Source: a virus
Lineage: Duplodnaviria > Heunggongvirae > Uroviricota > Caudoviricetes
DNA length: 64,000 nt
IMG/VR virus record: IMGVR_UViG_2537561946_000006
Reading direction: 5' to 3' (one strand)
Part shown: positions 45,001 to 48,000 of the stretch, piece after piece
Numbering within the stretch: position 1 is the first letter of the stretch
How the letters are laid out: each line of letters opens with the position of its first letter
Program-made: the position numbers

Positions 45001-48000
45001 AAATTTATAACCTTTTGATTTTGCGATTCGGTATCATCGGTCTCGAAAACCGGAGTAGGGGCAACTCTACCGGGGGTTCAAATCCCCCTCTCTCCGCCAC
45101 TTTATCAATGACTTATCTCCCGACTTCCCGTCTTGCTTTTCCTAAACAGAACAATCGTAGAATATTCTTGAAGGGTTAGATCGTCACTGTTTTCTGTTCG
45201 ATACTGTGACATTCAGCACTTGATTCGCTATGGATCTGACAGGAAGGTTTTGAGCGAAAATCTGCAGTTATTCAGTCGTTTTCTTATCGGTCACCATTAT
45301 TCTTTTAGACATTGATCCTACAAAGCTGCCGCAAAGTTGGTGGTGGGAACTGAAGTTGCGTAGAGAAGGGGTCAATACCCGGAGGCAAACATGGGCTGGC
45401 AAAAGTGTAGCGGCATTAGGCGCAGCTATTTAGCCTAGTTATGTTTTATGAAAACTTGATATCATATAAGTGTCTTACTTATTGGCTGTAAATAAGTTTT
45501 TCCTAAGGAATTGTTTCTTGAGTATCATTTGTAACTGTAACGGAATTTATAATCCTTTGCTTTATTGTTACGGTATTTTTTATCACACCCTATTTTTAGT
45601 GGTTTTTTATACTGAAGTTTGGCAAAGTGAACTTTATATACATATACTTCATCCTGATTTCAGTTAAATTGGGTGGATGATATGGCAACTACATGTTCAG
45701 TTATATTGATTTTGGAGTCCTTTGATGTTTATTTCGGAAAAGAGAGTGTGTTTCTGGAGAGAGGTTCATCTGTACTTGTCGACTCTAGATCTAGAGATTT
45801 TTTCCTGACATATCCTGAAAGAGTGATAGTGGCGGATTTTGGCGCTGAGTTTATTAGTCGCTATTTGAAAGCTAATAACTTAAGGGATATTTCTGATTGT
45901 AGGGAATATCCATCTTATTTAAAAATAAACTTTGCTGACTTCAGTTTAATTAAAGGATTAATTAGTTGGGCTAATCACTGTGCTGAATACATAGAAATTT
46001 TTGATGAGTCTATTGCTTTTACATGTCTCTCTGCATTTTCTTCTGAAAAACAATTTGGAGTATTTCTGTTTGGATGTTTGAAAAGCACAGGGGCTAAAGT
46101 TAAAACGATTATTCATACGGATTTATCTGCACCATGGCGTCTTAAGGATATATCATCAAGATTATATCTCAGCGAAAGTTTACTAAAGAGGAAATTGAAA
46201 GAAGAGGGGGTATCATTCAGTAAGATCATACTTGATGAGAGGATGCAAATGGCTGAATATTTACTCAGCACTCGTTGTTATCCTATTAGTAAAGTAGCTA
46301 AGGTCTGTGGTTATGCCAGTGTCTCATACTTTACTTATGTATTTAGACGTTATTTTGGTGTTTCTCCAAGTCAATACTCTCAGAGGAGTTCAGAAAGTAA
46401 AATTCTTACTCACCAGGGAATCTGATCATTGTTCTTGCCCCCTTATTTCCAGACAGGGGGTGTATCTTAAGTTAACGTTACCCGCTGACGTCGATATTCT
46501 CGCGGAGAGCGATAACCCAACGCACTGTGCGGATGGTTTTCATTGTAATGTTCGATCGCCACTGCAAGATTATGCAATGCCGTTCTTACATTCGGTTTCG
46601 GCATGAACGCGATGTAGTCTTCCTTCATCGTTTTCACGAACCTTTCTGCAATTCCATTACTCTGAGGACTGCTGATTGCCGTTGTGCAGGGCTCCAGATT
46701 CAACTCTCTGGCGAACTGCCGTGTTTCATGCGCTCTATACGCTGAACCGTTATCTGTCAGCCACTGGATGGACTGTTCCGGTACTTTATCGCCAAAGCGT
46801 TTTTCTATCGCTCCTAACATGACATCCTGCACTGTCGCTTTATCGTAACCTCCCGTGCTTGCGGCCCAGTCTATGGCTTCACGATCGCAACAGTCCAGGG
46901 CGATTCATCTGGGCCAATCCTCGCTCATAACAGGCATTCACTTCAGTCATGGCAGAAAGGTATGCATGCTGGAGAAGTCGTGAAAGAAAAGAAGACTGCT
47001 GCGCCGTTTGTCGTCACGTTTATCTTCATTGGCTATGCAAGTCGTAATACAAGGTGGGACAAAACTGAGACACATAAGGCCTCGCAATGGCTTGCAAGGC
47101 TTTACATGTTTTGATGTGGTGGGACGTGTGAGCGCAGTGTTGATGGGGTAATACTTTGAATTAGAAGCGGATTCTTATAATTCGTAATGCGAAGGTCGTA
47201 GGTTCGACTCCTATTATCGGCACCATTTAAATCAATAAATTACCTCACATTTAAGTAAACCACGTTCACCTCTTGTGCCGTATTTGTGCCATTGCGACTT
47301 ATAATCGCATCGATTTTGCTCGCGTGCTCGGTGAGATGCCCGGCTGAAAGGTGGGCGTATCTTTGAACCATTTCGAGAGTTTCCCATCCTCCCATCTCTT
47401 TAAGTGCAAGAAGAGAGACACCGGACTGAACCAGCCAGCTTGCCCAGGTATGCCTCAGGTCATGGAAGCGGAAGTTGCTAATGCCTGCCCGCTTTAACGC
47501 TCCCTTCCATGCCTTGTTGCTGTCGGTTCTCATCTTCCTTACCGCTGCTGTTTTTGTTCCGTCGCTTCGGTAGGCAGGTCTGGTGTGGACAAATACCCAT
47601 CTCTTATGGAGCCCCTGCTGTTTTCTTAATATCTGGCATGCGGTTTCGTTAAGAGGAACTCCGATCGCATTGCCAGCTTTTGTTTCATCAGGGTGCATCC
47701 ATGCCATTTTCTTATCCAGATCGACCTGTGACCACTCAAGGTCTGTAACGTTGGAACGGCGAAGGCCTGTCGTGATTGCAAACATGACCACAGGGAAGAA
47801 ATGAGGAGCAATTTCTGCAAACAGGTGCTTCGATTCCTCCTCTGTAAGCCATCTGATTCGTCCATTCTTAACGCGTGGTGTTGATATTTTGGGCGCCCTG
47901 TCAAGCCATCCCCATTCAACAGCTATATTGAGAATAGCGCGAAGTATTGCCAGATGCCGCGTCTTCGTTCCTTTGCTTGCCAGCTTTGGTTTATACTCCG

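Follow-up and report, generated by a model that had tools for sequence, protein, structure and literature searches.

A probable patE gene, coding for a phage-borne AraC-family regulator of acid resistance, in a lambdoid prophage arm with type III effector cargo

Prophage-encoded regulators of the AraC family in Escherichia coli have been described as feeding into the acid-resistance circuit of GadE and dampening type III secretion. One of them is PatE, an AraC/XylS-family regulator encoded by z0321 on O-island 8 (prophage CP-933H) of the enterohaemorrhagic E. coli (EHEC) strain EDL933 (review PMC10877973). The same gene was listed as a 'putative regulator (prophage CP-933H)' (PMC2907692). The present analysis concerns an AraC-family gene in the IMG/VR virus record IMGVR_UViG_2537561946_000006 (Caudoviricetes), a stretch of 64,000 nucleotides that is referred to below as the window. 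The gene is very probably patE, a phage-borne regulator of acid resistance, and this judgement covers both the identification and the mechanism proposed below.

The patE gene is already known from publications, together with its family and regulatory logic. The functional statements are drawn from reviews and citing papers on the EDL933 protein. According to the review PMC10877973, PatE activates gadE, gadB, gadC and hdeAB (citing Bender et al. 2012) and acts through a cis-element located at -132 to -45 of the hdeA promoter. The review also states that PatE lowers several type III secretion genes of the LEE (locus of enterocyte effacement), six LEE genes being negatively regulated in an EDL933 microarray, and that patE expression is higher in stationary phase. 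Expression of z0321 is 6-fold RpoS-dependent, and the gene is well expressed in stationary-phase EDL933 (log2 12.4; PMC2907692). PatE and PsrB have been grouped as prophage AraC/XylS regulators that feed the AR2 acid-resistance system (PMC10057817, a paper on AppY). Another review (PMC8565820) contributed no further information on PatE.

Identity, reading frame and family of the gene

The product of the gene is identical in 246 of 247 residues to WP_000246059.1 from E. coli O157:H7, with equal length, start and stop. The sole difference, S36R, lies in the N-terminal domain and falls in a variable column of the family alignment. In EDL933, WP_000246059.1 is encoded at 309101-309844 of NZ_CP008957.1 and is the only AraC-family gene of the thrW-adjacent prophage CP-933H, between thrW and the next integrase. 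It is flanked there by a pin/GIY-YIG segment and by the same insertion sequence (IS) remnant as the gene in the window. Since WP_000246059.1 is the sole AraC-family gene of CP-933H and z0321 is PatE, the gene in the window is identified by elimination as patE. The preliminary description of the window had taken it for an orphan, which does not hold for a gene that was already studied in EHEC EDL933. Public records name the protein only 'AraC family transcriptional regulator', and a look-up of its protein cluster returned generic names without the label 'PatE'. The identification is therefore useful for annotation, as such generic records correspond to PatE. The cluster is nearly invariant over 1788 member sequences; in the protein collection, the R36 allele is found on 24 contigs and the S36 allele on more than 1000.

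The open reading frame (ORF; 45673/45682 to 46425, plus strand) ends with a TGA codon at 46423-46425 and codes for 247 amino acids with no internal stop. The start is placed at ATG 45682, which is preceded by a Shine-Dalgarno-like GGTGGA at 45671-45676 and corresponds to the start annotated by RefSeq for identical genes. The resulting N-terminus, MATTCSVI, agrees with the MxxxCSVI pattern common to all the relatives examined (YdeO, GadW, AppY, ECs1087 and the unnamed paralogues). The guanine-plus-cytosine (GC) content is 35.1% in the gene (27% at third codon positions) and 30.9% in the 282 nucleotides (nt) before it (45400-45681), against 49.9% in the whole window. An intact, AT-rich AraC-family gene behind an AT-rich region, as first described, is thus confirmed. 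A consensus scan of this region gave a promoter-like site, TTGGCA-18-TATACT, at 45619-45648, where TATACT (45643-45648) resembles a sigma-70/sigma-S -10 element; both are pattern matches that may correspond to the promoter.

The IS end reported after the stop codon is real, although the distance is 4 nt and not the 6 first given. When both ends of a full ISEc48 copy were aligned, the ISEc48-type terminal inverted repeat TGTTCTTGCCCCC... was found to start at 46430, the position where the Megablast matches to ISEc48-family transposase genes also begin. The possibility that the IS supplies the stop codon or truncates patE is ruled out by this position and by a 79%-identical homologue of equal length and similar ending, which indicates that the C-terminus is native. 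In a tblastn search of the 64-kb window no second AraC-type or patE/psr-like gene was found.

The Pfam domains HTH_AraC (1.3e-16, in two stretches) and HTH_18 (8.6e-16) were both detected above the gathering score at residues 158-235. The protein is composed of an N-terminal part of ~135 residues similar to YdeO and GadW and a C-terminal dual helix-turn-helix DNA-binding domain (residues ~138-238); no AraC_binding/cupin domain was detected in it by Pfam. Sequence comparison places PatE in the AraC/XylS family, within the YdeO/GadW/GadX/AppY/Psr group. The identities to PatE are 37% for PsrA (full-length ECs1087 of Sakai Sp4), 35% for K-12 YdeO, 33% for GadW, 35% for the C-terminal part of GadX and 28% for AppY. 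Over the full length, YdeO gives the best NCBIfam match (residues 1-235, 6e-43), followed by GadX, HilD and HilC, with all scores far under the equivalog cut-offs: 147.2 bits against 348 for YdeO (NF007407), and 110.5 bits against 500 for GadX (NF007432), whose match covers only the C-terminal half. The matches to metabolic regulators are weak and confined to the DNA-binding domain, with 53.6 bits against 208 for AraC, 43 against 363 for RhaR and 27 against 199 for FeaR. Orthology to a conserved metabolic regulator (AraC, RhaR/RhaS, XylR, FeaR or HpaA), a possibility raised in the preliminary description, is ruled out by these scores and by the restriction of the matches to that domain.

The gene used here as PsrA is the AraC-family gene at ECs1087 in the Sakai record, and a 2026 paper gives psrA as ecs1087 in Sp4. 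The review PMC10877973, of 2024, places psrA (z1789) on O-island 50, and no AraC-family gene was found in the EDL933 potC prophage, which was examined for it. The literature and the EDL933/Sakai annotation disagree on the z-number and the O-island placement of psrA. The annotated start of Sakai ECs1087, which gives 195 amino acids, is probably too short, as the open frame gives 237.

Among structures of the PDB, the closest sequence match is the GadX DNA-binding domain (3mkl, 3e-24), with Rns, CsvR and ToxT next (1e-16 to 1e-13). An AlphaFold2 model was built on a 15-sequence alignment and has an overall predicted local distance difference test score (pLDDT) of 66.5. The DNA-binding domain reaches pLDDT 84-94, residues 1-70 are of moderate confidence and residues 71-132 are below 50. 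With Foldseek, the modelled DNA-binding domain superposes on GadX 3mkl with a template-modelling (TM) score of 0.90 (target-normalised), 44% identity and a root-mean-square deviation of 1.7 Å. The top matches of the full-length model are Rns, CsvR and ToxT, with TM scores of only ~0.4 on a model of low confidence in its N-terminal and linker regions. The homology to CsvR reaches into the N-terminal half of PatE, the alignment covering residues 18-232.

Phage carriage and competing explanations

The 1.1-kb patE region is accessory, being present in 645 of the 5426 complete E. coli genomes (~12%; coverage of at least 80%). The positive genomes include O157:H7, O128:H27, an enterotoxigenic E. coli (ETEC) and porcine, avian and seawater isolates, and the region also occurs on three plasmid-typed records. 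The IS remnant nearly always accompanies it. In the porcine strain PI24 (locus L004, 6285-8088), ISKpn26, of the IS5 family, interrupts patE ~20 nt ahead of the stop and alters the C-terminus, and the usual ISEc48-like remnant lies further downstream.

The complete records of three phages encode proteins with 98-99% identity: PhiR70_1 (host E. coli C), mEp332 (host K-12 MG1655) and ev099. The annotated context was examined for ev099 and PhiR70_1. In both, patE and the IS remnant follow the tail fibre and tail-fibre assembly genes on the J-lom side, and in ev099 they stand just before the integrase and excisionase genes. Both phages share positions 44915-46903 of the window, including the serU-derived piece. 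The gene is phage cargo (a 'moron') in the accessory slot beside the attachment site, a standard lambdoid position. It ends up at the right edge of the prophage, beside the copy of the attachment site, as observed in the window. The claim that the gene stands outside the prophage gene order is not sustained, given that it fills the slot between the side tail-fibre genes and the integrase in complete phage records.

The proximity to type III effector genes had led to the view of a horizontally acquired virulence regulator. In its strict form, a dedicated virulence regulator would directly control the adjacent nleB2 and nleF genes or the LEE. patE does lie 1.36 kb downstream of nleF in the window, and two complete genomes as well as 15 or more draft assemblies show the same arrangement. 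In addition, PMC10877973 reports the association of the related PsrA and PsrB with effector loci, together with the effect of PatE on the six LEE genes mentioned above. On the other hand, that effect is described there as repression, and the adjacency is conserved neither in O157:H7 and O128:H27 nor in ev099 and PhiR70_1. The left neighbours vary, with a pin/GIY-YIG segment in O157:H7 and O128:H27 and tail-fibre genes in the two phages, so that the vicinity of the effector locus in the window reflects mosaic assembly and not a conserved unit. Between patE and nleF there are also fragments of serU and ykgJ as well as IS debris, and patE occurs in strains with no indication of the LEE, among them the ETEC, porcine, avian and seawater isolates. 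Direct control of virulence genes is consequently improbable. The horizontal origin stands, whereas the main documented role of PatE is the activation of core acid-resistance genes and its effect on the LEE is negative. PatE is a stress regulator with a side effect on virulence and no virulence activator in the classical sense.

A second alternative considers patE as an inert passenger, silenced or decaying among attachment-site and IS remnants and with no role in this strain. Its surroundings fit such a fate: nleH is frameshifted, nleC is truncated, IS remnants lie on both sides and fragments of serU, ykgJ and thrW are scattered around it. The AT-rich gene would likely be a target of H-NS, its close alleles differ by nonsynonymous changes only, and the insertion in PI24 illustrates disruption of its 3' end. 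However, the ORF is intact and nearly invariant in its 1788-member cluster, and the gene occurs in the 645 complete genomes. The stationary-phase expression of z0321 in EDL933 and the reported transcriptional phenotype of its mutant also stand against inertness. Over longer distances the ratio of nonsynonymous to synonymous substitution rates (dN/dS) is 0.16-0.17 (0.16 in the comparison with the 84%-identical homologue), and judged from these sequence comparisons the PatE family is under purifying selection over this range. The passenger explanation is very improbable.

The identification as a functional patE has to be weighed against four points. The equation of z0321 with WP_000246059.1 was made by elimination, from the presence of a single AraC gene in CP-933H. 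The functional data concern the S36 protein of EDL933, taken from reviews, and not the strain of the window or its R36 allele. The near-identical alleles show 1, 3 and 5 nonsynonymous against 0 synonymous differences, too few to interpret, and these close-allele differences do not demonstrate recent purifying selection. Finally, the neighbours are decayed (nleH, nleC and the IS pieces), so that gene decay is ongoing locally.

That PatE regulates the life cycle of the phage itself (lysogeny or late genes) and not host genes is extremely improbable: patE is phage-borne and its 84% and 53% homologues are found directly downstream of Q and upstream of the holin gene, but the Q-holin slot and the region from the tail fibres to the attachment site are classical positions of lysogenic-conversion cargo, the documented regulon consists of host acid-resistance genes with no phage target documented, and patE is still found in strongly eroded prophages, CP-933H among them, that have no functional life cycle.

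These homologues are paralogues placed between the late antiterminator gene Q and the holin gene of lambdoid prophages (P0021, 84% identity; P0027-P0029, 53%). The related loci L006 (6001-6732; 53%) and L028 (6001-6735; 84%) hold such unnamed PatE paralogues in the Q-holin slot. About a dozen lambda-like phage records likewise contain the 53% type. These paralogues suggest that phages carry an entire series of YdeO/Psr/PatE-like regulators still to be characterised.

The mosaic module and the surrounding genes

The features of the patE module and of its surroundings are listed in Table 1.

Table 1. Features of the window around patE (coordinates of the 64,000-nucleotide stretch)
Feature	Coordinates	Strand	Basis or remark
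DNA methylase gene, left prophage	10445-11494		
tRNA-Met(CAT) and tRNA-Arg(TCT), left prophage	11544-11796		downstream of the DNA methylase gene
Type III effector cargo locus, left lambdoid prophage	41167..44324	+	annotation of near-identical stretch in strain CD45
nleB2, intact	41167-42147		
nleH, frameshifted	~42865-43700		ORFs 42865-43440 and 43566-43700
nleF, intact	43755-44324		
ykgJ 5' fragment (YkgJ-family cysteine-cluster protein)	44655-44828	-	between nleF and serU fragment
serU tRNA-Ser 3' ~70 nt (CCA end 45107) and ~270 bp of core sequence downstream of serU	45038..45377	+	~97% to serU locus, ~5000/5426 complete genomes
41-nt IS/transposase-end fragment	45378..45418	.	separates serU-derived piece from AT-rich patE segment
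AT-rich leader and patE	45419-46425	+	ORF, composition
AT-rich 5' region, ~31% GC	45419..45681	+	composition; consensus scan
patE coding sequence, 247 amino acids and stop	45682..46425	+	ORF, Pfam, 246/247 identity to WP_000246059.1
ISEc48-like IS3-family 3'-terminal remnant, ~470 bp, truncated on inner side	46430..~46903	-	Megablast; ev099 identity block ends 46903
Transposase C-terminal ORF of the IS remnant	46467-46832		
Non-coding spacer, widely adjoining tRNA-type attachment sites of E. coli islands	46904..47179	.	partial unannotated matches in 3730/5426 genomes
thrW tRNA-Thr 3' 46 nt (attachment-site core), right module boundary	47180..47225	+	47180-47243 matches L001 3195-3258
Second lambdoid element	47180-56650		
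Integrase of second lambdoid prophage	47240-48400	-	ORF; Pfam Phage_integrase
IS3-family element	48612-49816		
PACE-type transporter gene	50659-51117	-	
LysR gene	51221-52105		
Inverse autotransporter, 1183 amino acids	57539-61090	+	intimin/invasin-type beta-domain, Big_1 repeats
alpha/beta-hydrolase (BD-FAE) gene	61127-62170	-	beyond second prophage remnant

Over its 2.19 kb (45037-47226) the module shares 99.7% identity with its counterparts in O157:H7 and O128:H27, and the block common to these and the window has its left edge at 45037/45038. The thrW fragment was recognised because locus L001, which it matches, carries an annotated tRNA-Thr at 3165-3240. With ARAGORN, neither the serU nor the thrW fragment gave a complete tRNA, and an Rfam scan of 44500-47500 gave no small RNA or riboswitch, its sub-threshold matches coming from the tRNA fragment only. 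RefSeq treats the IS remnant as a pseudogene, 'integrase core domain-containing protein, missing N-terminus'. A partial transposase pseudogene that adjoins ospC4 on a plasmid of strain FDAARGOS_943 has an end that matches the 41-nt fragment; with the ISEc48-like remnant on the other side, IS debris flanks the AT-rich patE segment at both of its ends. The serU fragment and its core flank sit in a prophage arm at the thrW locus, and the free phages ev099 and PhiR70_1 have the serU piece as well. It resembles a relic left by aberrant excision or by attachment-site capture from a serU-integrated ancestor.

To the left of patE lies the end of a lambdoid prophage, with J, lom and tail fibres followed by the effector cargo and the ykgJ fragment. 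A draft-assembly locus (L009) is 100% identical to 35682-56425 of the window, and the same order is found on 15 or more other contigs; the Pfam domains SseK_NleB and NleF_casp_inhib were found in L009. Strain CD45 has a full ykgJ ~9 kb further on, and the ykgJ fragment is therefore probably another attachment-site or recombination scar. The tRNA genes of the left prophage have no psr-like gene beside them, whereas in Sakai Sp4 a comparable tRNA cluster (ileZ-argN-argO) has the psrA gene (ECs1087) directly upstream of it.

To the right, the integrase gene of the second lambdoid element directly follows the thrW fragment. The early genes of this element (DUF551, ead, dksA-like, exo, recT and gam) are present and the element appears to stop there, so that it appears to be a truncated prophage remnant. 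Self-comparison of the window revealed no internal repeats, which indicates that the two prophages are different elements. Positions 47181-52000 are 99.8% identical in dog, soil and water isolates, and the match stops short of the patE module. The inverse autotransporter and hydrolase genes are probably chromosomal backbone.

Proposed action and comparison with known systems

In the proposed mechanism, a lysogen with the module would express PatE from its own AT-rich promoter region in an RpoS-dependent manner in stationary phase. The GadX-like dual helix-turn-helix domain would then bind to AT-rich promoters of the acid fitness island. Such binding is expected to raise GadE and the GAD/Hde acid-resistance functions, and hence the acid survival of the lysogen. 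The LEE and type III secretion genes would be lowered, probably through GadE, by analogy with the description of PsrA and PsrB. The identity steps come from the present analysis, the regulatory steps from published work on a protein with a single residue changed, and the LEE route is inferred. PatE would act in trans, and since its targets lie in another part of the chromosome, within the core acid fitness island, the lack of an evident target in the window, correctly pointed out before, is what should be expected.

A broader proposal joins three elements. As a single lambdoid arm carries nleB2, nleF and patE, one phage could deliver effectors together with a regulator that rewires the GAD and LEE systems; PatE in its R36 form might tune the neighbouring effectors; and the serU piece might be a fossil of the specialised-transduction type that moved patE between tRNA sites. 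Taken as a whole, this proposal is improbable.

To the published knowledge of PatE the locus adds context in three respects. Complete, propagated lambdoid phages have patE in their accessory region beside the attachment site; the IS remnant and the serU-derived fragment accompany it in a fixed module; and closer and more distant paralogues fill the Q-holin cargo slot of other lambdoid prophages. The three points support the notion that regulators of the PatE family belong to the standard cargo of E. coli phages.

Among the known systems, the AraC-type virulence activators Rns, CsvR and ToxT, which have a fatty-acid-binding N-terminal domain, are detectable full-length homologues of PatE, but the sequence identity is only ~18-21%. 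YdeO, GadW and GadX belong to the chromosomal acid fitness island circuit of E. coli and have the architecture and the regulatory theme in common with PatE. They are core genes with 33-35% identity, whereas patE is accessory and phage-borne. AppY, from the cryptic prophage DLP12 of K-12, is likewise a prophage AraC/XylS regulator. Its gene lies at the right end of a lambdoid prophage, behind remnants of tail-fibre assembly, and the protein activates gadE and acid resistance directly. AppY differs from PatE in its prophage, integration site and sequence. The EHEC prophage secretion regulators PsrA and PsrB are small AraC/XylS proteins that resemble PatE in length and in the MxxxCSVI N-terminus, and both groups are reported to activate gadE/hdeA, thereby reducing type III secretion. 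They differ in location: psrA adjoins phage tRNA genes in the Q-to-lysis region, and patE occupies the stretch from the tail fibres to the attachment site. With the 37% identity and a position after the tail-fibre/effector region and not after Q, PatE is a homologue but not an orthologue of PsrA and PsrB. The closest described system remains PatE of EDL933, which shares with the window the 2.19-kb module made of the serU fragment, the AT-rich leader, the ISEc48-like remnant 4 nt after the stop and the thrW attachment-site fragment. The two loci differ in the left neighbour, which is the pin/GIY-YIG segment of CP-933H in EDL933 and the end of a lambdoid prophage with nleB2-nleF cargo in the window.

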